Assembly: GCA_018780035.1 (NCBI GenBank) | Contig: JADMKE010000029.1 | Coordinates: forward strand, 65,388 to 129,387 | Length of the DNA: 64,000 nucleotides | Direction: 5' to 3' | DNA from: Candidatus Sericytochromatia bacterium | Lineage (GTDB): Bacteria; Cyanobacteriota; Sericytochromatia; UBA7694 | Shown here: positions 158-19,786 of the stretch, one piece after another | How the letters are laid out: every line of letters begins with the position of its first letter | Position numbering within the stretch: position 1 is the stretch's first letter | The notes under the pieces: model-generated | Told to the model about the DNA's origin: nothing | What the model saw: only the letters and a program-made list of their open reading frames with translations | Databases searched by the model: none | Made by a program: the position numbers and the translations under genes

Positions 158-256
158 GGGTTAACTCCCAAAAAGGTTATATTACTATTTGACAAAGTTG
201 ACTTGGCTACATTAAAAGAATAGTCTTTCATATCAAAATAAACTGCCGAATTTAGT

Positions 257-1573
257 TTAATTCCACCACGGAATGTCCCTTACTGAGCCAACAGTTAGGT
301 GTCTACACCGTATACGATGGTTTAACCACACATTTGTTTTTTCGTTAATCAAGAGCTTCATCGCTTCCCTGCAAATCTTAATCCCCCCTTTGTAAGGTTT
401 TAGTACGAGAAGATGATTCTCAACAGCAACAGGAGAGTCTCCAAGAACCAGTGTAACAACTGCTCTTTCTTTGTCTCTTGAACTCGATGTTCTTCTCACA
501 GTAAGAAAAGGAGGTAGAAAAACACGTTTGTAAAATTTTATTTTTGAGTCTAAATAATTTACATTTACTTCCCCTCCTGAAGGTAACAAACGACTATGTA
601 TGTAAGGATATTCCTCGCCAATTTCAGGATCGCGGTGTGGAACAACGGTACCTACTGAAACTTGAAATAGATCTCCAATAGTTTGACTTGTCGAATCCAT
701 TAACACGGAGCATAGCCAATTATAGTTTGAATTATTGATTTTTTGAGAACGTTTTGTTAAATGAATTATGAATACATCAACATCTGCATAATCATCGAAT
801 TTCCCAACTACTTCAATTGAGCTGACAGCAGCCATGGATGTTATGTGATTTCTCCATTTTTCATATCTTGATCCGGTACGGAGAACGTCAGGTAGAATTG
901 CAGCAATTTGAGATCCGGATTCAGCTTTTTCAATACATTCCGATAAAAAAATTGCTGCCATAGAAATCTTACCTCTTCCCCATGATGCTTTATGAACTTG
1001 ATGGTAGTAAGGTGGATTCAATACGTATAGAGATCTTCTATTAACTTTGCTCAAATACTCTATTCCGTCATTAATGGTAATATTTGGGAAAAGTTCGTCT
1101 TGATTAATTGTGTCAAAATCACAATACGAATTATGCCTTTGCATTGCTTCTAAAACTAATCGGTATTTGAGTGCTAAAATAAACTGAGGTACTACGTCTA
1201 CGCCATGTAAAATTTTTCCCCATTCATTTAAAGTTTTAGAAAGTGTATTCTGGAGAGGTAAAAAGCTAGATGCAGCAAGGAGAAGACTTCCAGCACCACA
1301 AGAGGGATCAATTATACTCAGATTATTTTTCAAAATATCTGAATAAGGCCTTAGGAGCCGTTGAGAAAGTTCTGTAGAAGTAAAAAATGCCCCCAGTGCT
1401 TGACGCTCTTTTAAGTCTAAGGAATTTCTTAACGATTTAGCAGCATCTCCGTTTAGTGCTGGCTCAATAAGAACTTTATATTTAACATCGATATTTTTAT
1501 TGCTTTTTAGTTTCTGGATTAATTCGCTTAATCCAATTGTGTAGTCAGAAAAATTATTCATCTCACTACCCAA
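257..1573 (-). CDS. Gamma-class N6-adenine DNA methyltransferase (Eco57I/TaqI-like MTase module with a C-terminal target-recognition region; no nuclease domain)
   Basis: Motif X FFTSTEL, motif I IIDPSCGAGSLLLAA, motif IV NPPY in gamma-class order. Post-NPPY region resembles the Eco57I-type MTase domain. AT-rich codon usage. Overlaps the upstream gene by 16 nt. Confidence 0.8.
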   Translation of the reverse strand: MGSEMNNFSDYTIGLSELIQKLKSNKNIDVKYKVLIEPALNGDAAKSLRNSLDLKERQALGAFFTSTELSQRLLRPYSDILKNNLSIIDPSCGAGSLLLAASSFLPLQNTLSKTLNEWGKILHGVDVVPQFILALKYRLVLEAMQRHNSYCDFDTINQDELFPNITINDGIEYLSKVNRRSLYVLNPPYYHQVHKASWGRGKISMAAIFLSECIEKAESGSQIAAILPDVLRTGSRYEKWRNHITSMAAVSSIEVVGKFDDYADVDVFIIHLTKRSQKINNSNYNWLCSVLMDSTSQTIGDLFQVSVGTVVPHRDPEIGEEYPYIHSRLLPSGGEVNVNYLDSKIKFYKRVFLPPFLTVRRTSSSRDKERAVVTLVLGDSPVAVENHLLVLKPYKGGIKICREAMKLLINEKTNVWLNHRIRCRHLTVGSVRDIPWWN

Positions 1574-2550
1574 ATAGCGTTAACAAGTTCTTCTCGTCTA
1601 AAGGATGAAGGTAAATCTATTTCATCAGGAATAAAAATTTTAGGAAATCTCCTACGCCTCTGACCAGTGTTTCTTGCACTTAAAGCATTTAAAATAACGT
1701 CAGGTTTTTGATGGATAATAGATTGAATGATAATTCCATAGGGGGATAGGTTTAGAATTGATTTTCCTCGGCCAGCCTTACTTTCATCAATTAGAATTTT
1801 AGCTAAAATGTCTGAATTTAAATCCAATAATTTTAATAAATCTTGAATATTTTTAGAAAGACGGATAATGTCTTGGGGAAGACTAGATTGCTCCCAATTT
1901 GACTTAACAAGATTAATTATTTTAATTAGTTCTTGTGTCTGTCGATCTGTCTTATTTGACAGCGCTACCTCAGAAATTTCATCAACAGCTGCCACAGCAG
2001 ACTCAGCATGTTCCAACATGGCTTTAACTTGGAATGCGACCCTTTGCCTAGCCCAACTTAAATTGTCATTTTTGTATATCAGATCATGTGTTGAGATTGA
2101 CCATGCATGTTGTAGAAATGTTTTTATCTGACATTCAAACTTTTTTCCTAACAATCCTGACGGAGGTAATGTTTCGTCATCGATCCATTCTACGTATAGC
2201 CTTAAATCGTCAAAGACAAAAGATTCTGGAGATTTATGGGTCAGACTATCCTCCTGAGGTCTTCGATATTTAAGTGTGAATAGGCTACAAATAAGGTCTT
2301 CAGCCTCTTTTATCGAATGGAAATTATTCACAACAATTGTACAGGCAAAGAAATCTTCCAAATCCTTGGGATTATCAAACCTTCCAGTCTCAAGCTTTTG
2401 AGCAAAACTTTCTAATTGTTTTACTCGACTTTCATAATGCCATCTTGGGTTTCTCTTAGAACTAATTAACTTATCAACTAGTTGTTGAAGTTCTTCGTAC
2501 ACTTTGACTTGATCAAGATACAAGTTTCTTACAGAAAGTGGTACCTTCAT
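1558..2550 (-). CDS. RelA/SpoT-family nucleotidyltransferase (small-alarmone-synthetase / toxSAS-like) with a roughly 170-aa uncharacterised C-terminal region
   Basis: SRVKQLESFAQKLETG matches the G-loop GRVKxxxSIxEKMxRRG. DFFACTIVV matches DIAGLRV. ECQIKTFLQHAWSISTHDLIYK matches EIQIRTLAMNFWATIEHSLNYKY of RelQ/RelA synthetase domains. Catalytic D and E are present. Its ATG is embedded in the ATGA overlap with the stop of the DUF262 gene. Confidence 0.6.
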   Translation of the reverse strand: MKVPLSVRNLYLDQVKVYEELQQLVDKLISSKRNPRWHYESRVKQLESFAQKLETGRFDNPKDLEDFFACTIVVNNFHSIKEAEDLICSLFTLKYRRPQEDSLTHKSPESFVFDDLRLYVEWIDDETLPPSGLLGKKFECQIKTFLQHAWSISTHDLIYKNDNLSWARQRVAFQVKAMLEHAESAVAAVDEISEVALSNKTDRQTQELIKIINLVKSNWEQSSLPQDIIRLSKNIQDLLKLLDLNSDILAKILIDESKAGRGKSILNLSPYGIIIQSIIHQKPDVILNALSARNTGQRRRRFPKIFIPDEIDLPSSFRREELVNAIWVVR

Positions 2551-3671
2551 TATTCACTTTCAACTTCTTCTTCAGAATTTTGCTCTTCTGGTAAAATCTG
2601 AGGTGGCTCTAAACCTAACAAAATACTAGATAATAGAGTATGCCGTGCTTTCCTCTGCGCTGGCTCAGTATTTGCACCAGTCACGTTATTTAAGTAAGCA
2701 AGTGGAGCAGCAAAACTTGATTCAGGTTGGGTCCTTAAAAACTGTTCCAAATTATCTTGTTCAATTTTTAGAGTCTGTACTTGCTTCATAAACGCAGCAA
2801 ATCGTTTAGCGGCCTCTTCATGACTAGGCAATTCAGAGTAGTTTAACGCTATTGCAAACCAAAGAGAAAAAAGATTATTTGATGATTTTGCATATTCTGA
2901 AACGCTTTGATTTGCTGTTTCCATTTGATTGATAAATGATTTTATCTGCTCAAAATGAATTATAAATTTTTCCTCATCAAAATCAACATCAGTCTCTGCT
3001 GGTAGTTCATATTTAGCGCACATTTCATCAATGAAATCTTGATCAAAACCGCGAATTTCCTTATTAATCATGAGTATCATAAGTTCTAAAATAAACTGGA
3101 CATCTTTCATTCTCTTGACTTTTGCTGTTGTTACAATTCCATAGTCTTTCCAGAATTGAGATTCTGCTTCTGCTTCAGCTGTATTTATTAACCACCCATC
3201 AAACATAGCGTGGCGCAATTCCTGACGCTCTAGTTTTAAAGAATTTCGGTTTAGTCGATCAAATACAGCGCTAATTAGCGTTCCTTCAACAATTTTAATG
3301 TATTCAACAGGAATTACGTAATCCCAGAATCTTCTTTTTAAATCATCATCTAATTGTGACCATTTTTTTCCGTTCAGTCTGGTATCACCAAACCCCTTAT
3401 CTATGACTATTTTATTTTGAGTGAATAGCAAGATTGTCTCAAGACGTTGTTTTCCATCCACAACCTCGTGAATATGAAGCCCATCTTTGAATACTTTATG
3501 AAGAAAAATAGCTGGACTGGGATAGCCTCGAAAAATCGAATCTAGAAAAAAACGTCGATCTTTTGGGCTCCATACACTTCTCCGTTGATATGGAGGATTT
3601 AAATCGAGTTGTGCATTTCTATTCAGATCAAGGAACCAACTAATATCCTGAGTTGTTACGCGTCTATCCAT
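2550..3671 (-). CDS. DUF262 (GmrS-like, ParB/Srx-fold NTPase) protein with a C-terminal helical region; no DUF1524/HNH domain
   Basis: N-terminal LNPPYQRRSVWSP and DGKQRLETI (QRxxVW and DGQQR hallmarks of DUF262). Strong SD (AGGAG) before the ATG at 3671. AT-rich. First gene of the three-gene operon. Confidence 0.75.
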   Translation of the reverse strand: MDRRVTTQDISWFLDLNRNAQLDLNPPYQRRSVWSPKDRRFFLDSIFRGYPSPAIFLHKVFKDGLHIHEVVDGKQRLETILLFTQNKIVIDKGFGDTRLNGKKWSQLDDDLKRRFWDYVIPVEYIKIVEGTLISAVFDRLNRNSLKLERQELRHAMFDGWLINTAEAEAESQFWKDYGIVTTAKVKRMKDVQFILELMILMINKEIRGFDQDFIDEMCAKYELPAETDVDFDEEKFIIHFEQIKSFINQMETANQSVSEYAKSSNNLFSLWFAIALNYSELPSHEEAAKRFAAFMKQVQTLKIEQDNLEQFLRTQPESSFAAPLAYLNNVTGANTEPAQRKARHTLLSSILLGLEPPQILPEEQNSEEEVESE

Positions 3672-3998
3672 TCGGGCTCCTGTATTTAAATAAAAATTAA
3701 TATTGTATTGTTATGTATGTAATTTAATTATCAACATTATATCAAAGGATAAGTGTATGGGGTTAATAAGTTTTCAAATATAGAAAATTTAAGAAATACT
3801 AATTTTTTCATCTCCCTGTAGGGATTCTCCCTTAAAGAATGTATCACATTTTCGCCTCAAAACCAGCTTTTCTGAATCATAGAACTGAGTTACTTATCCT
3901 TCACGAAACGCAAACCCTGCATGAGGAACAGGCCCAAGAGAAGGGGTTCACTTGGGCCTGACCAGAACGGAGAAAGCAGAATCAGAAGGGGATCACCA

Positions 3999-5003
3999 TT
4001 AGAACAGTGGGTCTTGTCTTTGCTGGCGCTTTTCTTGGTGCTTTTGCATCCGCTGTTTCATCCGCTCTTTCATGCTCTCCTGCATGGCTTTGCCACGGGT
4101 TTCGAGCTTGGCCACCAGGGCTTCACGTTGCTGGGGGCTGAGAAGGCCATGGACCTCGGCCATCATCTGCAGGCGCTGATCCAGATGGCTTTCCATTCCA
4201 TTGAGGCCTGTGTTGAGCACAGCCTTTACCTGTTCGACGCTGGGGGTACCGGCTTGAAAGAGGCTTACCAGCTGATTCTTGACCCCGCTCAGCTCTTTAA
4301 ACTGGGCCATGCGCTGGGGTTGACTCTGTTCAAACAGGTTTTTGAGTTGGGTTTTTTGCGCTTCACTCAGGCCCAGCTCAGCTGCCATTTTTTCCAAGCG
4401 TTTGCCACCTCCGTGGCCATGCATTTGCATGAGTTTATCCGCAAAGGGCATTTTGCTAAACCCGGCGATTTTTTTCTCGACCTGATCGAGCTGGCTATAC
4501 ACCTCTTGGCGCTGTTCGGGGGTCAAAATGCTGTAGACCTGCACCATTTTTTCAGCCATTTTTTGGCTGCGCGCAGCTTTCTGTGCGGCAATCAGCGGGG
4601 TGATTTGGCTTTTCACGGCAGCGGTCTCAAATTTGGCACTCAAAAAGGCAGTTTTAAAAATCTGTTTAAACTGGCTGAGGGTCTCTTTGTGATTCTGAAA
4701 ATCAGCGCGGGCCTCTTTGCGCATGGCTTGCAGCTGGGATTTTTGCGCATCGCTGAGATTGAGCTTTTTCAAGAATCCGGCCATGTGCTGACCACGCATG
4801 CCTCTGCCGTGCTGCATCCCAAAACCATTGCCTTTTTCTTCGGCAAAAGCAGGGTTATCGAGGCCCAGCAGATCAAAATCGGCACTGTCTTCGGAATTGA
4901 AGCGGGAATTCACCTGTGTGCTGGGGCCTTGGCTCTGAGCGGCGCAGCCCACGACCAAAAGTGTTGCAGATGCGAGAGCGAATAGGGATTTAATCAGTTT
5001 CAT
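3999..5003 (-). CDS. Periplasmic Spy/CpxP-family (LTXXQ-motif) stress protein, lipoprotein
   Basis: The ORF-track start at 5156 is probably too far upstream. ATG at 5003 has GAGGAAG six to seven nt upstream and gives MKLIKSLFALASATLLVVGC, a lipoprotein signal. Four LTXXQ-type repeats (LSDAQKSQL, LTPEQRQEV, LSEAQKTQL, LSPQQREAL). Confidence 0.7.
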   Translation of the reverse strand: MKLIKSLFALASATLLVVGCAAQSQGPSTQVNSRFNSEDSADFDLLGLDNPAFAEEKGNGFGMQHGRGMRGQHMAGFLKKLNLSDAQKSQLQAMRKEARADFQNHKETLSQFKQIFKTAFLSAKFETAAVKSQITPLIAAQKAARSQKMAEKMVQVYSILTPEQRQEVYSQLDQVEKKIAGFSKMPFADKLMQMHGHGGGKRLEKMAAELGLSEAQKTQLKNLFEQSQPQRMAQFKELSGVKNQLVSLFQAGTPSVEQVKAVLNTGLNGMESHLDQRLQMMAEVHGLLSPQQREALVAKLETRGKAMQESMKERMKQRMQKHQEKRQQRQDPLF

Positions 5004-5097
5004 TTGGGTCTTCCTCACTGTGTGTGTTTGCTTAAGTTTCAGTATGCCGATTGCCTGTGTGGATAGTTTCAGAAAAGTGTAAAGACTTTGTAAAGAC

Positions 5098-5733
5098 TCA
5101 AAAGAGCCAGGAGACGACAGAAATTCGCTCCCCAGCATTGACGGCTCTGACCTCATGGGTTAAGTCTGAGCGGAAGGCAATTAAGGTGCCTGAGGGGGGC
5201 TCCAGGGGGCGACCGATCAATGTATGTCCCTGGGCCTCAGTGGGCAAATAAAACACCAATTCTCCGCCACTGTATTCATCCTGTTTGCGCGGATGCTCTA
5301 CTTGGCGACTGAGCAATAAAATTGTGCTGATTTGGCGTGGCGGCAAGTGGCTCATGCCAGGATATTTCGCAAATTCTGGCAGCCAGTCTCGGTGCGGTTT
5401 AAAATAATAGCCAGGCAAATACTTGAGAAAAGCGGGGGGTTCGAGCCCCCTTAAGCGCACCTGAAAAAAGGTCTCAAATGATCCTCTGAGTGCAATGAGC
5501 CGATCTGAGACCAAATGGCGGAGTTGGTCCGAGACCTCTATCTGGGCGGTTTTTCGGTCGCCTTGTCTGTTTTTCGCTTGGGCGTAAGGGTTGACAATCG
5601 GTGCCATTTCTGTCTTTTTATCGGCCAATTGCCCATGCAGGGCCTGGATTTCAGCGCTACTCAAAAATTCGGGCTGAGCAAAGAGTAGGCCCTGTCGGGT
5701 GAAAAAATCCAGCGGGTAAGTCTCTCTGCGCAT
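5098..5733 (-). CDS. Fe(II)/2-oxoglutarate-dependent hydroxylase, PKHD/PiuC-like
   Basis: HRD (HxD) at KPHRDW, distal His in LTHEVRAV, GGELVF. Overall PiuC/YbiX-like layout. Confidence 0.65.
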   Translation of the reverse strand: MRRETYPLDFFTRQGLLFAQPEFLSSAEIQALHGQLADKKTEMAPIVNPYAQAKNRQGDRKTAQIEVSDQLRHLVSDRLIALRGSFETFFQVRLRGLEPPAFLKYLPGYYFKPHRDWLPEFAKYPGMSHLPPRQISTILLLSRQVEHPRKQDEYSGGELVFYLPTEAQGHTLIGRPLEPPSGTLIAFRSDLTHEVRAVNAGERISVVSWLF

Positions 5734-7939: not shown

Positions 7940-8138
7940 CCACGGGACCTTTGATCTCTCTTTTCCAGAAACAGGTGGTTAAACCTGTTTGGTTGGGTTG
8001 GGCCTGTACCAGCTCCCAACCGTTTTTGCCCAATTTCTCAAAAACTTCCAGGGCTTCAGCGTTCTTTGGTTTTTTTGTGTCAAAAGGCGGGGTCAGCATA
8101 AACTGAGCCTGTGTCACCTTGTATTCCCATTTCGGCAT
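7923..8138 (-). CDS. DUF4177-like small protein
   Basis: Likely start at internal ATG 8138 (MPKWEYKV...). EKLGKNGWELVQAQP matches the DUF4177 pattern. Confidence 0.45.
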   Translation of the reverse strand: MPKWEYKVTQAQFMLTPPFDTKKPKNAEALEVFEKLGKNGWELVQAQPNQTGLTTCFWKREIKGPVDEWTT

Positions 8139-8246
8139 GTGCTTTACCTCATTCAGATTTCTGGACTCTGGGCTTGGCCTGATGAAGACAGGCACAAGCC
8201 ATTATACAATACTGCTCAGAACAATTGCACGCCGGTTGAACGGCGG

Positions 8247-8720
8247 CTATTTGGCTTTTTCAACCCGGATCAACTCCACTTCAAAAATCAGGGTGGAATT
8301 GGCAGGAATCGGGCCGACATTGCGCTGACCATAACCCATTTCGGGGGGAATCGTCAATTTGCGCTGGCCGCCTTCTTTCATACCGGCAAAGCCTTCGTCC
8401 CAGCCTTTGATGACCTGGCCGACACCCAAGGTGAAGGAAAAGGGTTCATTGCGATCTTTGGAGGAATCAAATTTATCTCCATTGGTCAGCCAGCCTGTGT
8501 AATGGACGATCACGGTATCACCTTTGGCAGGGGTGGCGCCCGTTCCGACTTTGATTTCTTCGATTTTCATTTGGGTGGCATTGGGTGTGGCATTTTGGGT
8601 TTCAGACATGGGTTTCTCCGAGTGTGATTCTTGTTTGAGGCTGCAACTGGCTCCGCCACCAGCCAGCAAATAGGCACTGAGCAGGGCGGTCAGAGAGAAG
8701 GAATAAAGGCGCGTTTTCAT
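8247..8720 (-). CDS. FKBP-type peptidyl-prolyl cis-trans isomerase, lipoprotein
   Basis: ATG at 8720 with AAGGAG upstream. LLAGGGASC lipobox. FKBP core [18 protein letters not shown]...[12 protein letters not shown]...LIFEVELI. Confidence 0.8.
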
Positions 8721-8795
8721 GGCAACTCCTTGGCGATGCATCTTGGCTGATGCGTTACAGATGTCTGTTCAAGATAACCCGCCGTTTGGCCTGCG

Positions 8796-9671
8796 TCAAC
8801 CGAGTAACTCCACTGCCGAACGCAGTTTGCCGGGCTCGGTTTGGGCGTAGATCAAGGTCGTGTCGAGGCGGGAGTGGCCAAGCAGCTTGGAAATTTGCTC
8901 CAGCGGCGCGCCTTTGTCGAGCAATTGGGTAGCAAAGGTATGGCGCAGTTTATGCGGGCTGTAATTCTCAAGCCCAGCCTCTTTGAGCAGACCTTTGACG
9001 ATCTGCCGAAAGGCCCCGTAAGATATCCTCGCGCCTTTGTGGTTTTTGCCCATGCTGACAAACAGCGCTTCGGATTTGAGATAAGGCAGGGAAGACCTCA
9101 AACTGACCCATTCTTCGAGGGTGTAGATCAGCTTTTGACTGATCGGAATCAGGCGCTCTTTGTCGCCTTTGCCCACCACCCGCAATTGCCGGGTGTCCCA
9201 GAGAATATGTTCGAGATCGAGCATTTGCATCTCTCCAATACGCATACCTGTGTAAAAGAGGGTCTTGATCATGGTCATATTGCGGATCGCTTCGGGATCT
9301 TCGTAGCTCAAGGTCTCAAGCAGGTTTTTAACATCTTTTTCGGAGAGGTATTTGGGCAGGCGGCGCGGCAAACTGGGGGCCGAGAGATTGCCGGCTGGAT
9401 CGTCTTTGACAAATCCCCGGCGCTCGGCGTAATCGTAAAAGCGCTTGATGGCGATCAGGCGGCGGCGCACCGTGGTGGCCTTGAGGCTTTCCAGGGTGGC
9501 CATATACTGAAACAACTCACGCTCGCGCACAGCGATCAGCGGCTTTTCTAAAAAGGCTTCGACCAAACGCAAATCCGACTCATACGCTGTGAGCGTGTGT
9601 TTGCTCAGGCGGCGCTGGCGCAAAATATTGAGAAAATCGTCGATCGTAAAGACCTCTTCGGGGTTGGACAT
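8796..9671 (-). CDS. Tyrosine site-specific recombinase, XerC/XerD family
   Basis: N-terminal SAM-like LSKHTLTAYESDLRL. Catalytic region HKLRHTFATQLL...LLGHSRLDTTLIYAQ with the terminal Tyr. Confidence 0.8.
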   Translation of the reverse strand: MSNPEEVFTIDDFLNILRQRRLSKHTLTAYESDLRLVEAFLEKPLIAVRERELFQYMATLESLKATTVRRRLIAIKRFYDYAERRGFVKDDPAGNLSAPSLPRRLPKYLSEKDVKNLLETLSYEDPEAIRNMTMIKTLFYTGMRIGEMQMLDLEHILWDTRQLRVVGKGDKERLIPISQKLIYTLEEWVSLRSSLPYLKSEALFVSMGKNHKGARISYGAFRQIVKGLLKEAGLENYSPHKLRHTFATQLLDKGAPLEQISKLLGHSRLDTTLIYAQTEPGKLRSAVELLG

Positions 9672-12337: not shown

Positions 12338-12410
12338 GCGTCCTTAGTTCAGTTGGTAGAACGGCGGTCTCCAAAACCGCATGTCGGGGGTTCGAGTCCC
12401 TCAGGGCGTG
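12338..12410 (+). tRNA. trnW: tRNA-Trp (anticodon CCA)
   Basis: Hand-folded cloverleaf: 7-bp acceptor GCGTCCT/AGGGCGT (two GU pairs), D arm GTTC/GAAC, anticodon stem GCGGT/ACCGC with loop CUCCAAA, T arm GGGGG-TTCGAGT-CCCTC. 73 nt. Canonical position upstream of secE-nusG. Confidence 0.85.
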
Positions 12411-12456
12411 CTTCATTTTCCTTCTGTTTAGACAAAGTATGTTATTATACATGCAT

Positions 12457-16484: not shown

Positions 16485-16514
16485 ATTAACCTGTTAACAA
16501 CGAGAAAACACCCA

Positions 16515-17507
16515 TTAACCATTCGTCAAGATATAATAGTTTTCTCTTTTGCGTTTGTGTTTGGTTTGAATTAATTCATTGTCATAAAACACACCGTAAA
16601 TATAATATTGATTATCACTGATTCTGTCATAGATAGCCATACCTTTGTAATCAGCTATCTGCCTCGTTCTGACATCACTATAATGAAAACGAATAAACCC
16701 AAAATCAACATAGGGTTTCAGTGAATTAAAAGACTCATATAAATTTGCTTTTTTTTGCTTGATTAATATCTCAGATGCATGTATGTGATAATTATTTTTA
16801 TTTTCTTCGTATTGCATCGGATTTGAAGCATTCATCCAATAAGACGGAGTATTGTGAGTCGGATTTTTTGCTTCACGCTCCAGAACACTTAAATTTTCTG
16901 GATATTTCCCTTGATCGAGGGCATAAGTTTCTAACATGATTTGTAAGTTATGCATATTTACTTTGACCATCGATTCTTTATTGCAACTACAGGCAAAAGC
17001 TGACATAAAAAACAAAGGATCAACAATAAAAGTTGTAAACATACAAAAAACAAATAGTATCCGTCTATACTTATTCAAGTAAATCATCAATATCCAGCCA
17101 AATATCAAAAAAAATCCTGTATAGGCAAATAGAGAAATAGTAGAAAAAAATAAGATTATACCCGGTAATGGATGAATTACATCTTCAATAATTCCAGGTA
17201 AAAAACGCATTTTTTTTCGCTTGCTATCTCTTTTCTTGAAATTTAAATCCATTCCATAGAGTAAAATTAGCAATATCATAAGTAAAATAAAATTTTCAAA
17301 ATTATGTTGGTAAATTGGTTTAAAATAATAATCGGGAGGAGCACAATGACAAGGGAGGTGATGAATACTTAGCCAATTGAATCGAAATATTGGAAACACA
17401 ACGCATAATATTGATAGATTAAACAAACCAAATTCATGAATATACTTATTCTTGTATAGTCTATTGATTAGATTCATATGTCTAAATGAGATACTGACCT
17501 CAAACAA
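16515..17507 (-). CDS. AT-rich polytopic membrane protein with a C-terminal GspG/pseudopilin-like segment
   Basis: Multiple TM helices in the first roughly 190 aa. KVNMHNLQIMLETYALDQGKYPENLSVL resembles the conserved LxxLExALxMYxLDNGxYPT region of type II secretion GspG / type IV pilins. Strongly AT-rich codon usage. Confidence 0.4.
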   Translation of the reverse strand: MFEVSISFRHMNLINRLYKNKYIHEFGLFNLSILCVVFPIFRFNWLSIHHLPCHCAPPDYYFKPIYQHNFENFILLMILLILLYGMDLNFKKRDSKRKKMRFLPGIIEDVIHPLPGIILFFSTISLFAYTGFFLIFGWILMIYLNKYRRILFVFCMFTTFIVDPLFFMSAFACSCNKESMVKVNMHNLQIMLETYALDQGKYPENLSVLEREAKNPTHNTPSYWMNASNPMQYEENKNNYHIHASEILIKQKKANLYESFNSLKPYVDFGFIRFHYSDVRTRQIADYKGMAIYDRISDNQYYIYGVFYDNELIQTKHKRKRENYYILTNG

Positions 17508-17594
17508 AGATTTTCAATTATTCCCAATATAAGAAGTGTTCTAACATATCTTGAAAAGGCCTCAACCCATCATCACCCATCGGGATTTCAAGCA

Positions 17595-17711
17595 ATGCAA
17601 AACATCGCTGCCTGGCTGGTAACAAAGTTGATGCGTTTGCAACTCTCTCAATCTTGGCCCTTGTCTGCAATCAGCCAGCGAAGGATAATGAAGCGTATCC
17701 GTCTCATGATC
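17595..17711 (+). pseudogene. Decayed duplicate of the 5' end of the downstream phosphotransferase gene (19787)
   Basis: MQNIAAWLVTKLMRLQLSQSW aligns with MQTIDTALVKRLIRSQFPQW. The DNA just upstream (cctcaacccatcatc...) is also shared with 19752-19800. Short frame ends at 17711. Confidence 0.4.
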
Positions 17712-17730
17712 TACCCATAAGGAGCCTGAT

Positions 17731-18261
17731 ATGCAAAACACAGAAATCCAAGATATCCAGCGTATTTTTTCCACCCGCTTGGCTACCCTTGAGCAGATTT
17801 TGAGCCTGGGTGAAAAACACGTTGCAGGAGAGGGGGAGATGGCGATGGATGCGGTACTGCAAGCACGTTTGGCCCCAGATATGTTTCCTTTGGGCACACA
17901 AATTGCCTTTGCCTGCAACCAACCCCGTGGATTTGCACTCTGGTGTGCGGGTCAGCCTTATGAGAATCTTGACCCCGAGGTGAAGACGCTGGCTGTCGCT
18001 CGTTCATACATTCAAAATACCCTGTCAGAGCTGGCTGCCATAGAAGCTCTTGATACAAAATTGGACGAAATCAAACGCACAGGGTTGGGGCCAGGACTGT
18101 ATTGTGAGACGCCTGGGCGGCTGTATGTGAGCGATTATCTGATGCCCAATTTTTACTTCCACATCACCACCAGCTATGCGATTTTAAGAAATCTGGGGGT
18201 GCCCCTTGGCAAAGCGGATTATATGGGCTTTCTGATGCCGCATGTCAGACAAGAGAGCTGA
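17731..18261 (+). CDS. DUF1993 family protein
   Basis: YVSDYLMPNFYFHITTSYAILRNLG is typical of DUF1993. AAGGAG SD upstream. Confidence 0.65.
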   Translation: MQNTEIQDIQRIFSTRLATLEQILSLGEKHVAGEGEMAMDAVLQARLAPDMFPLGTQIAFACNQPRGFALWCAGQPYENLDPEVKTLAVARSYIQNTLSELAAIEALDTKLDEIKRTGLGPGLYCETPGRLYVSDYLMPNFYFHITTSYAILRNLGVPLGKADYMGFLMPHVRQES

Positions 18262-18350
18262 GACTTCTGGGTGGAAATTATCAAAGTTGTTCAATAACCC
18301 GTTGGAATCTCTTTCAGATTAGAATGATATATTAAAATAATGGTTAATTT

Positions 18351-19688
18351 ATGATTAAAAAATACAATATTTTGTTGTTGTTTTGTATTTTTGAGATTTT
18401 TTCTCAATCTTCTTGTATTTCTTTGGGTGTTATTAATTATGAATTGGAATCTATTTCACTAGATCGGGGGTTGGAACATCTTAAAAAGAAAGAATATAAC
18501 CAAGCCATACAAGCTTTTCAAGTCAAACTACAAATTAACCCCAAAGATATTGATACTTATATTTGGTTGGCCACCGCTTATGATGATCAAGGCGATAAAG
18601 ATGCTGCTCTCCAAACACTGAAAAAAGTATTGGAATTAGAACCAAACCATATCAGTGCCAATATGCGTTTGGGATACGTGTATTATAAAAAAGCAGATTA
18701 CAAAAATGCCTTAGTAGCGTTCAAAAAAACTGCAGAATTAGATCCGAAAAATACTGAAAATCTAAAATTTTTAGGCAGTACTAGTTTTTATTTGGACGAT
18801 AATGTATCTGCGAAAGAATATTTTTTAAAATATGAATCACTTGAAGAAAATCCTTCTGCAAATACTTTAGGAACTATATGTGCCAATTACTTTAATTTAA
18901 AAGAGTTTGAACAAGCTAAAATATACGCAGAAAAATCAATAAAAACTGACCCATCTGTTTCTTTGGCTTATTTTATTTTAGGTGGCTATTTTTATCAGAA
19001 AAGAGATAATGAAAATGCAGAAAAAAATTTCAAATTAGCTGAAATAAATAGTAAAGGAGAAAGCGTAAATGCTATTTATTACTTGGGGAAATTATATTTT
19101 GAAAAAAAACGCTTTCAATCAGCTTTTGATTATTTCTCAAAACTACCTTCAAGTTATCGAGACACAGAGAAATTAAAACAGGAATCTGAAAAAAAACTAG
19201 AAGAACTAGCTTCAAAAAACTATTTAAAAACATATTTTGAAAATGTTTTTAGTGCTTATGATCTAAATGTTTCTGAGCCACAATCCAGCATGAGCTGTTT
19301 GTCAGATACCTCTGGATTGATTGAAAAACAGGAGTTAAAATCTGTTATTACTAACTATATCAAGTCACAAGGGACTCTTGATTTAAAAAAAATCATATTT
19401 GTTGAAGAGTTAAACGAATACAAGGGGCATAAATATCAACCTTACCATTATATTTTGAGAGCAAAAGTCTTAGAGTCAAAAAATTTTAATGAAACAGAAA
19501 TGGCCTTGCTCGATGCCGTTCAAAAGGCTGTTTTAGTTGGCATTATAAATGGTGTGCCTTGTAAATTTAATAATCACTATGATAAAGCCTCTTCCCAAAA
19601 CAGAAGTTACGATGATTATTTTTTTATTAACTTTATCCCAACAAATCTTCTTTTAAAATATGATTTGTCTATAAAAAAACAAAATTAG
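18351..19688 (+). CDS. AT-rich TPR-repeat protein with N-terminal signal/lipoprotein-like sequence
   Basis: LLLFCIFEIFSQSSC. Multiple TPR units (AIQAFQVKLQINPKD, AALQTLKKVLELEPNH, ALVAFKKTAELDPKN). Very AT-rich. Confidence 0.7.
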   Translation: MIKKYNILLLFCIFEIFSQSSCISLGVINYELESISLDRGLEHLKKKEYNQAIQAFQVKLQINPKDIDTYIWLATAYDDQGDKDAALQTLKKVLELEPNHISANMRLGYVYYKKADYKNALVAFKKTAELDPKNTENLKFLGSTSFYLDDNVSAKEYFLKYESLEENPSANTLGTICANYFNLKEFEQAKIYAEKSIKTDPSVSLAYFILGGYFYQKRDNENAEKNFKLAEINSKGESVNAIYYLGKLYFEKKRFQSAFDYFSKLPSSYRDTEKLKQESEKKLEELASKNYLKTYFENVFSAYDLNVSEPQSSMSCLSDTSGLIEKQELKSVITNYIKSQGTLDLKKIIFVEELNEYKGHKYQPYHYILRAKVLESKNFNETEMALLDAVQKAVLVGIINGVPCKFNNHYDKASSQNRSYDDYFFINFIPTNLLLKYDLSIKKQN

Positions 19689-19786
19689 TATCAAAAATAT
19701 TTTTTAAGCAATTTAAGGTTGTGAACAGCTAAGCAAAGGAACTTGTAAGTACCTCAACCCATCATCGTCCACAAGGATATCAAGCC

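Follow-up and report, generated by a model that had tools for sequence, protein, structure and literature searches.

A DUF262-type protein, a RelA/SpoT homologue and an N6-adenine methyltransferase form a candidate restriction-modification-like defence cassette in a Candidatus Sericytochromatia genome

Organization of the three-gene island

The DNA analysed here (the window) is a 64,000-nucleotide stretch from Candidatus Sericytochromatia bacterium (contig JADMKE010000029.1, positions 65,388 to 129,387 of the forward strand), and the subject of the analysis is a low-GC island of exactly three genes near its left end (Table 1). The GC content of the island is approximately 0.36 compared with approximately 0.52 in the flanks. 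All three genes lie on the minus strand and encode a DUF262/ParB-like protein (A), a RelA/SpoT homologue (RSH; B) and an N6-adenine DNA methyltransferase (C). Functional statements made throughout are drawn from sequence, structure prediction and gene context. At the A/B junction (TAATG) the start of B overlaps the stop of A by 1 nt and at the B/C junction (ATGA) the start of C overlaps the stop of B, which indicates translational coupling of the three genes. A TTG codon at 1573 was rejected as the start of C because it was an artefact of open reading frame (ORF) extension; the ATG at 1561 lies within the ATGA junction, the gene caller gave a product of 434 aa and the family has a length of approximately 435 aa. 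The left flank carries a rhodanese gene that runs off the window and the right flank an LTXXQ/metal-resistance-type gene, while a longer contig of the same organism (L090) showed housekeeping genes on both sides of the island. Database entries of a Candidatus Sericytochromatia metagenome-assembled genome were 100% identical to the proteins.

The initial annotation of this locus described a DUF262 protein without its usual DUF1524 nuclease partner and proposed that restriction was either absent or delegated to the RelA/SpoT protein. This two-part wiring overlooked the N6-adenine methyltransferase as the third component of the unit.

Table 1. Coordinates of the island, its genes and their domains in the window
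Feature	Position	Strand	Size	Basis or remark
Low-GC island, exactly three genes	170..3900	.		Composition profile, ORF list, extended contig L090
Gene C, gamma-class N6-adenine DNA methyltransferase (NPPY)	257..1561	-	434 aa	
Gene B, RelA/SpoT homologue (small alarmone synthetase fold)	1558..2550	-	330 aa	Proposed effector
B residues 166-330, helical C-terminal domain with small beta element	1561..2055	-		AlphaFold2 model, alignment A2, isoelectric point
B residues 1-165, SYNTH domain	2056..2550	-		Alignment A2, HMM alignment to CapRel 7ZTB and 2BE3, fold matches (TMt 0.65-0.73)
Gene A, DUF262/ParB-like NTPase with helical ParBDB-like domain	2550..3671	-	373 aa	Proposed sensor/switch
A residues 353-373, acidic low-confidence tail GLEPPQILPEEQNSEEEVESE	2553..2615	-		pLDDT ~61; alignment A1 columns 380-404
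A residues 129-352, all-helical domain homologous to NsnA ParBDB	2616..3287	-		PADLOC NsnA/UzuA, DSSP on model, alignment A1
A residues 1-128, DUF262/ParB alpha/beta NTPase core	3288..3671	-		Alignment A1, model secondary structure, isoelectric point
Sigma-70-like promoter match TTGATA-16-AACAAT	3707..3734	-		Consensus scan; 36 nt upstream of the A start; weak evidence

The DUF262 protein and the question of a nuclease

The ORF list of the window gave A as an ATG-initiated ORF of 373 aa running from 3671 to 2550 on the minus strand. A sequence search returned more than 3000 homologues, of which more than 100 shared the N-terminus MDRRVTTQDISWF and a length of approximately 355 aa. Pfam GmrSD_N (PF03235) matched A at residues 23-156 (E 2e-20). 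The three DUF262 motifs QRRSVW (29-34), VVDGKQR (70-76) and FDRLNRN (137-143) were invariant across alignment A1, which consisted of A and 50 homologues (51 sequences, 50-59% identical, ~355 aa). The ATG-initiated frame, the GmrSD_N match and the three invariant motifs confirmed the DUF262 gene at 2550-3671 as real.

The best profile match of A was PADLOC NsnA (E 4.3e-34), with residues 13-301 aligned to positions 56-347 of the 385 in the model. PADLOC PD-T4-2_A (E 8.8e-21, aa 16-297) and UzuA (aa 157-299) were also matched. At E ≤1, Pfam gave only GmrSD_N and a weak YabA match, and no PDB chain was matched by A in sequence or profile searches, even at E ≤10. NCBIfam had no model for A or for B, and the PHROGs matches were all of unknown function. 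An AlphaFold2 model of A built on the homologue alignment (mean predicted local distance difference test score (pLDDT) 88.8) showed an alpha/beta core to residue 125, helices only from residue 130 to 352 and then a disordered acidic tail. The top Foldseek matches of this model in the PDB were BrxU (probability 0.99), SspE and ParB/Noc, with probabilities of 0.93-0.99 for BrxU and SspE. The N-terminal core (residues 1-128), which holds QRRSVW and VVDGKQR, is basic (family median isoelectric point (pI) 9.2), the helical domain (residues 129-352) is acidic (family median pI 5.1), and the tail GLEPPQILPEEQNSEEEVESE is missing in most homologues in alignment A1. Li et al. (PMC12065111) described NsnA as a ParB-DUF262 protein ending in a helical ParBDB domain, which also lies in the centre of GmrSD and SspE and at the C-terminal end of DndB. 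From the PADLOC NsnA alignment and the secondary structure, the helical half of A is a homologue of the C-terminal ParBDB domain of NsnA. It is thus a known domain and not an anonymous region.

The initial annotation also held that the C-terminal half was helical with no His-Me motif, and this agreed with the results. Pfam gave no DUF1524 or HNH match in A even at E ≤1, and residues 129-352 showed no beta strand, no His-Me, no PD-(D/E)xK and no conserved HEPN motif. With helices only at 130-352, the model leaves no room for a beta-beta-alpha His-Me finger or a PD-(D/E)xK sheet. Nuclease folds were also absent among the Foldseek PDB matches of the full-length model, so that neither the AlphaFold2 model, Foldseek nor Pfam detected a nuclease fold in the C-terminal region. 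A possible HEPN Rx4H motif (R149...H154) was rejected since R149 was not conserved in alignment A1. The only invariant His of A is H154, in the QELRHA helix, and as the preceding Arg is not conserved A has no HEPN Rx4-6H motif.

The island holds only the DUF262, RelA/SpoT-like and N6-methyltransferase genes and, as first reported, no nuclease gene, and none was present within 10 kb in the window and the longer contig of the same organism. When the window was translated in all six frames, a regular expression for the core motif of DUF1524 gave no hit; this is a weak test. Among 57 species loci carrying A and B (see below), no nuclease recurred except a PstI-type endonuclease, in a census that was not aimed at DUF1524. 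The premise that DUF262 normally occurs with DUF1524 holds for some systems only, as the DUF262 systems Menshen, Dazbog and PD-T4-2 have no DUF1524 (PMC12065111, PMC10952713). The lack of DUF1524 is therefore not exceptional by itself.

The RelA/SpoT homologue

B matched Pfam RelA_SpoT at 2e-9, above the curated cut-off. PADLOC v2 recognised it only by a partial match to the candidate PDC-S33 (2e-7) and gave no match to PD-T4-2_B (HEPN) at E ≤1. Foldseek matches of the AlphaFold2 model (pLDDT 88.7) were the small alarmone synthetases (SAS) RelQ, RelP and SAS1/2 and CapRel (E 4e-8 to 1e-6, TMt 0.58-0.73), and these SAS fold matches covered only approximately the first 200 residues. In alignment A2 of the B family (50 sequences, 46-53% identical to the window protein), R42, K44 and K52 of the ATP-binding RxKxxxSxxxK were invariant and S48 was ≥90% conserved. 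The Mg-binding D66, F113-D114-D115-x-R117-x-Y119, the catalytic ExQIKT (E139-x-Q141-x-K143-T144) and a tail of H148-x-W150...H155...Y159-K160 were likewise invariant. The best PDB sequence match was CapRel (7ZTB), a weak one (E 0.04) at only ~16-19% identity. Hidden Markov model (HMM) alignment to CapRel and to the RelQ-type 2BE3 placed the conserved residues of B on known catalytic positions, with the invariant F113 at the acceptor-stacking position, where a Phe stands in place of the usual Tyr. Judged by the retention of its active site, B looks catalytically competent. The toxSAS FaRel2 requires the corresponding Asp and Tyr, and tRNA-using and nucleotide-using toxSAS are not distinguishable by sequence (10.1101/2021.04.30.441581).

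The C-terminal region of B (residues 200-330, helical) had no PDB match in the Foldseek search of the model. In alignment A2, W219, L224-P225, G262 and NLSP (267-270) were conserved within the C-terminal domain. This half is basic: its pI is 9.5 in the protein of the window, and the median for the family is 8.2. The B family comprised 349 clusters at 50% identity (E ≤1e-30), and B is labelled 'hypothetical protein' in RefSeq. Only 3 B homologues were found in viral contigs, so that phages hardly ever carry the system.

The methyltransferase and its family

C matched Pfam N6_Mtase (1e-5), PADLOC MTase_II (2e-11) and the NCBIfam Alw26I/Eco31I-type model (9e-8), and no nuclease domain was found in C. 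The PstI-type methylases at sister loci are distant relatives, with only 21-25% identity to C, and many C homologues carry the source label 'hypothetical protein'. Four C homologues (L175-L178, 40-42% identical), chosen solely for their position on long contigs, occurred without A and B. Each of them was followed by a translationally coupled GHKL (HATPase_c_3) ATPase of 685-781 aa and a protein of approximately 230 aa with no family match, and a metallo-beta-lactamase-fold protein was added in two of the four modules. In the only example scanned (L175, 4001-9129), the ATPase had a weak match to PADLOC REase_II (7e-8). This layout looks like another uncharacterised methylase-linked restriction-like cassette. 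The coupling of C homologues to a different downstream module suggests that methylases of the C family are the 'M' arm to which various restriction-like modules can be attached, which in turn supports A-B as the 'R' arm of the window cassette.

Linkage of the three genes and distribution of the cassette

A scan seeded with A over one genome per GTDB species found an A relative in 191 species, and the best 80 loci, which span many bacterial phyla and two archaeal lineages, were analysed. B was directly downstream of A in 57 of the 80. Of the remainder, 22 loci formed a single clade of Nitrospirota/Thermodesulfovibrionales in which A stands alone among housekeeping genes. This clade consisted of L016, L018, L019, L030-L034, L038-L040, L042, L043, L053, L054, L056, L060, L068, L077, L079, L080 and L084; A lay at ~8001-9060 in most of them and its neighbours were housekeeping genes such as thioredoxin-like genes. 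The arrangement suggests a domesticated, vertically inherited function of the sensor protein. In a scan of metagenome contigs seeded with B, loci with at least 1.2 kb of upstream sequence were taken as informative, and A was directly upstream of B in all of them (63/63). The pairing is therefore obligate from the B side.

An N6-adenine methylase or a PstI-type remnant was present within approximately 5 kb in 54 of the 57 A-B loci. The window-type methylase C, usually in the order C-A-B, accounted for 22 loci, a BsuBI/PstI-type methylase with its endonuclease (sometimes fused) for ~21, and an Eco57I-M-like or other N6-adenine methylase alone for 10. One further locus had an endonuclease remnant at the contig end, and in the three loci of this set without a methylase, all on short contigs, nothing was detected. 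As the BsuBI/PstI-type endonuclease occurs in ~40% of related cassettes, the family as a whole is not nuclease-free. Minimal islands of A, B and a methylase without any nuclease were found at 32 loci, often between housekeeping genes, and at several of the methylase-only loci just the three genes were inserted between genes for LepA, RNase R or succinate dehydrogenase. The A-only clade, which served as an internal control, had a methylase in 0 of 22 loci. Of 15 B-seeded loci with wide flanks, 12 had a methylase, two had only decayed endonuclease fragments and one had none.

The class of methylase tracked the phylogeny of A, with the window A inside the C-type clade. Pairwise distances of A and B were correlated over 54 loci (r = 0.71), and within 21 C-type loci the distance correlations were 0.875 for A and B, 0.858 for A and C, and 0.875 for B and C. 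The adjacency of the methylase as mere clustering within defence islands was rejected on the basis of its absence from the A-only clade, the minimal three-gene islands and the co-divergence of A, B and C.

Annotated cassettes were carried by conjugative Rhizobium plasmids, and integrase or transposase genes were neighbours at some loci. A second annotated Rhizobium plasmid example held DUF262, a 'hypothetical' B and an N6 methylase, and the genome of the cultured Geomonas nitrogeniifigens (CP077684) also carries the cassette, in the order C-A-B. With its spread over many bacterial phyla and archaea, its presence on conjugative plasmids and its integrase and transposase neighbours, the cassette is mobile.

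Two loci showed further particulars. On plasmid pTiK1_93 of Rhizobium sp. K1/93 (L086, 7104-9385), a methylase, a BsuBI/PstI endonuclease, DUF262 and B follow in this order, and an IS5 transposase splits the RelA/SpoT-like gene into two 'hypothetical protein' fragments; this break could reflect selection against an active effector. At L111 (2860-4716), a DUF4238 protein and a weak HEPN-like protein are encoded directly upstream on the same strand as A-B, and they may be an alternative partner set.

Other features of the window

A scan of the region for promoters and terminators gave a number of matches not above the shuffled expectation. A 22-nt inverted repeat (3570-3591/3739-3760, 91% complementary, arms 147 nt apart) brackets the start codon of A and the promoter-like site, with one arm in the coding region of A and the other upstream; it may be a regulatory element or a chance occurrence in AT-rich DNA. 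A search of the island boundaries for att-like direct repeats and a tRNA target gave only short repeats at chance level. The sole tRNA of the window, a tRNA-Trp (CCA) at 12338-12411, lies approximately 8 kb from the island and is not an integration target for the cassette.

To the right of the island two ORFs overlap on opposite strands, 3921-4985 (+) and 3999-5156 (-). Gene calls on the longer contig identify the latter as a real gene of the LTXXQ/Metal_resist family. The former (354 aa) has a repetitive, low-complexity translation and was rejected as a shadow ORF. GC content is low again at 16500-19700 (0.35-0.42), where the genes code for a multi-pass membrane-like protein (16515-17507, -) and for two other proteins, one of 176 aa and the other TPR-like with 445 aa. 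This second low-GC stretch is probably a further horizontally acquired segment, with no obvious defence genes.

Proposed function and alternative explanations

With an N6-adenine methyltransferase as part of the unit, the cassette is restriction-modification-like. We somewhat favour the view that A, B and C form a restriction-modification-like sensor-effector defence that needs no nuclease in the window version. C would mark host DNA by N6-adenine methylation and A would act as an NTP-driven switch on DNA, telling self from foreign or damaged DNA. A would then license B, with the signal presumed to run from A to B, and licensed B would move pyrophosphate from ATP to a nucleotide or tRNA, leading to growth arrest and an aborted infection. 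DNA cleavage would be unnecessary in the window version. Of the two possibilities raised in the initial annotation, delegation to the RelA/SpoT protein is the best-supported reading because the RelA/SpoT-like gene is the obligate partner of the DUF262 gene; the effector role of B itself is a prediction from conservation and active-site retention.

Precedents exist for this mechanism. In GmrSD, BrxU and SspE the DUF262 module is a modification-sensing NTPase switch over an effector, with SspE sensing phosphorothioate and GmrSD and BrxU modified cytosines (PMC12065111, PMC10952713). Li et al. (PMC12065111) raise the possibility that non-modified genomes are targeted by ParB-DUF262 proteins linked to methylases. 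In PANGU type I, a DNA-bound YejK-like sensor activates a two-domain toxSAS, leading to pppGpp (10.64898/2026.04.06.716658). A more specific proposal, in which A reads N6-adenine methylation and either unmarked DNA or the loss of marked DNA licenses a divergent B pyrophosphokinase, is tentative and falls short of an even chance. With the altered acceptor site of B (FDDLR, DFFACT), the product or target could be a new alarmone, a tRNA or even a nucleic-acid 3' end.

Several observations weigh against the favoured interpretation. The acidic helical domain of A suits simple DNA binding poorly. Domain pI values were computed as a hint to DNA or tRNA binding and to the acceptor of B, and the combination of this acidic domain (family median 5.1) with a C-terminal domain of B that tends to be basic (8.2) would sooner fit a protein-protein interface than DNA binding. 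The acceptor motifs of B are changed in alignment A2 (YxSxH to FDDLR and DxxGxR to DFFACT), so that its substrate is not readable from the sequence and might be neither a nucleotide nor a tRNA. A complete PstI-type restriction-modification pair is present as well at approximately 21 of the 57 loci with A-B, and there A-B would be no substitute for a nuclease and could be a second layer or a guard. The well-flanked locus L111 has A-B without a methylase, and two loci have only decayed endonuclease fragments. Finally, A alone in the housekeeping context of Nitrospirota implies some function independent of B and methylation.

The alternative that survives best, although unlikely in our estimate, is that methylation is not read by A. 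A-B would then be a guard or back-up abortive-infection pair that monitors the linked methylase or restriction enzyme, or an addiction pair in which B is the toxin and A its neutraliser and which stabilises mobile restriction-modification islands. A precedent for a guard is PrrC, an anticodon nuclease whose activity is held in check by the type I restriction-modification enzyme EcoprrI. The complete PstI-type system adjoining A-B in many loci would fit a guard, and the order of a putative neutraliser followed by an RSH is that of toxSAS toxin-antitoxin pairs. The opposite charges of the A helical domain and the B C-terminal domain would suit a protein-protein complex, and the co-variation of the methylase class with the phylogeny of A is as expected for contacting proteins. 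However, the N6-adenine methylases found with A-B belong to at least three unrelated kinds (C-type, PstI-type and Eco57I-M-like), which share the chemistry of the mark and not a common protein surface. The full NTPase site of A and its GmrSD/SspE/NsnA sensor architecture exceed the needs of a simple antitoxin, and A survives without B in a whole clade while B was never seen without A.

An improbable explanation is that the locus is a regulated orphan-methylase (epigenetic) module outside defence, with A a DndB-like regulator of the methylase operon and B a producer of a non-toxic alarmone. DndB regulates the dnd modification genes. It is related to ParB/DUF262 proteins and has the same helical C-terminal domain (PMC12065111). 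In the window the methylase does stand alone, within a single operon whose three genes are tightly coupled, and housekeeping RSH enzymes act in signalling. Nevertheless, the patchy spread across phyla, the low-GC islands, the conjugative plasmids and the integrases and transposases point to mobile defence or conflict, and a PstI-type endonuclease is frequent within the cassette. In addition, the nearest profile relatives of A are the defence proteins NsnA and PD-T4-2_A, and the nearest solved sequence relative of B, by the weak match at E 0.04, is the defence toxSAS CapRel.

A cryptic nuclease in the C-terminal half of A, or a remote DUF1524 gene acting in trans as in an ordinary split GmrSD-type type IV system, is hardly credible: the original GmrSD is a two-gene system and the DNA inspected amounts to 64 kb of the genome and an extension of ~10 kb, but Pfam, the confidently modelled helices, the lack of a HEPN Rx4-6H motif and a fold search that returned BrxU, SspE and ParB all speak against it, as do the blank DUF1524 regular expression (a weak test) and the census of 57 loci, in which only the PstI-type endonuclease recurred and DUF1524 was not specifically screened.

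Significance

DUF262 proteins are already known singly as modification-sensing NTPase switches, RelA/SpoT toxins as abortive-infection effectors and methylases as self-markers. The three are not known to have been described as one working unit, and no description of a DUF262 and RelA/SpoT pairing was found in the literature open to full-text search. If the proposed sensor-effector function is true, the cassette would be the first restriction-modification-like immune system with a non-nuclease restriction arm, and epigenetic discrimination of self and non-self DNA would be tied directly to growth arrest of the alarmone type. The restriction arm of such a system would then be exchangeable for a nucleotide or tRNA pyrophosphokinase. 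It would also add a widely distributed defence family (349 B clusters; A in 191 GTDB species) and a new RSH branch whose acceptor site is unusual, and with only three genes it would be a simple model in which to ask how DNA modification is read by a ParB-like NTPase. The cassette is of interest for annotation too: B and many C homologues are now labelled 'hypothetical protein'.

Comparison with known systems

A resembles GmrSD, BrxU and SspE in having an N-terminal DUF262/ParB NTPase, marked by the QR, DGxQR and FxxxN motifs, with a helical domain of like kind behind it. SspE in addition pairs with a self-modification module (SspABCD), which would parallel the pairing of A with methylase C. 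These systems have a DUF1524 His-Me nuclease, whereas the window has none, fused or adjacent; its partner is an RSH pyrophosphokinase and the linked modification is N6-adenine methylation. Without DUF1524 the cassette is not a member of the GmrSD/BrxU/SspE group.

Menshen NsnA shares the two-domain ParB-DUF262 and ParBDB architecture with A (PMC12065111). Menshen is linked to methylases in 27.9% of cases, an occasional linkage compared with the near-obligate one of A-B (54/57 loci). NsnB (an ABC/OLD-type ATPase with DUF3696) and NsnC (inactive PIN and nuclease) are not in the island, where the gene downstream of A is RelA_SpoT and the third gene is an N6-adenine methyltransferase, and the absence of both sets the cassette apart from Menshen. 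PD-T4-2 has the two-gene sensor-effector layout of the window pair with the DUF262 protein first; its partner is HEPN, whereas B has the small alarmone synthetase fold and the methylase is part of the unit. Lacking a HEPN partner, the cassette is not PD-T4-2.

PANGU type I is bicistronic like A-B, with the DNA-associated sensor Pag1A followed by the two-domain RSH effector Pag1B, a GRel toxSAS with an N-terminal SYNTH and a C-terminal partner-binding domain (10.64898/2026.04.06.716658). Its sensor activates and does not neutralise the effector, and the output is pppGpp synthesis and abortive infection (10.64898/2026.04.06.716658). The PANGU sensor is a YejK-like nucleoid protein, while A showed no YejK-type Pfam family at E ≤1. 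The effector C-terminal domain in PANGU is an acidic DNA mimic and that of B is basic, and the window cassette has a linked methylase. The differences in the sensor and in the effector C-terminal domain set the cassette apart from PANGU.

B shares with CapRel and other toxSAS the RSH synthetase fold, the conserved Mg-binding Asp and the catalytic Glu, and CapRel defends by abortive infection. The acceptor motif is YxxxH in CapRel/toxSAS and FDDLR in B, and toxSAS modules have a small antitoxin as partner in contrast to the 43-kDa NTPase of A-B. No fused pseudo-zinc-finger antitoxin domain like that of CapRel was seen in B, in fold alignments of CapRel and B with a low global TM (0.31-0.33), and residues 200-330 of B are helical.

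In PrrC-EcoprrI, too, an abortive-infection effector directed at translation is encoded within a restriction-modification locus, here of type I, and provides a second line of defence. PrrC is an unrelated ABC-ATPase-like anticodon nuclease, and that locus has no DUF262 or RSH component, unlike the window cassette. BsuBI/PstI-type restriction-modification systems share with the window cassette an N6-adenine methyltransferase (C: N6_Mtase, NPPY, MTase_II). They carry a cognate endonuclease and neither the island nor its flanks does, so that the cassette is not a plain PstI-type system. Set beside these systems, and as far as function can be predicted from sequence, the cassette would be a defence module built on a DUF262 sensor, in which the effector has been exchanged and a methylase incorporated.

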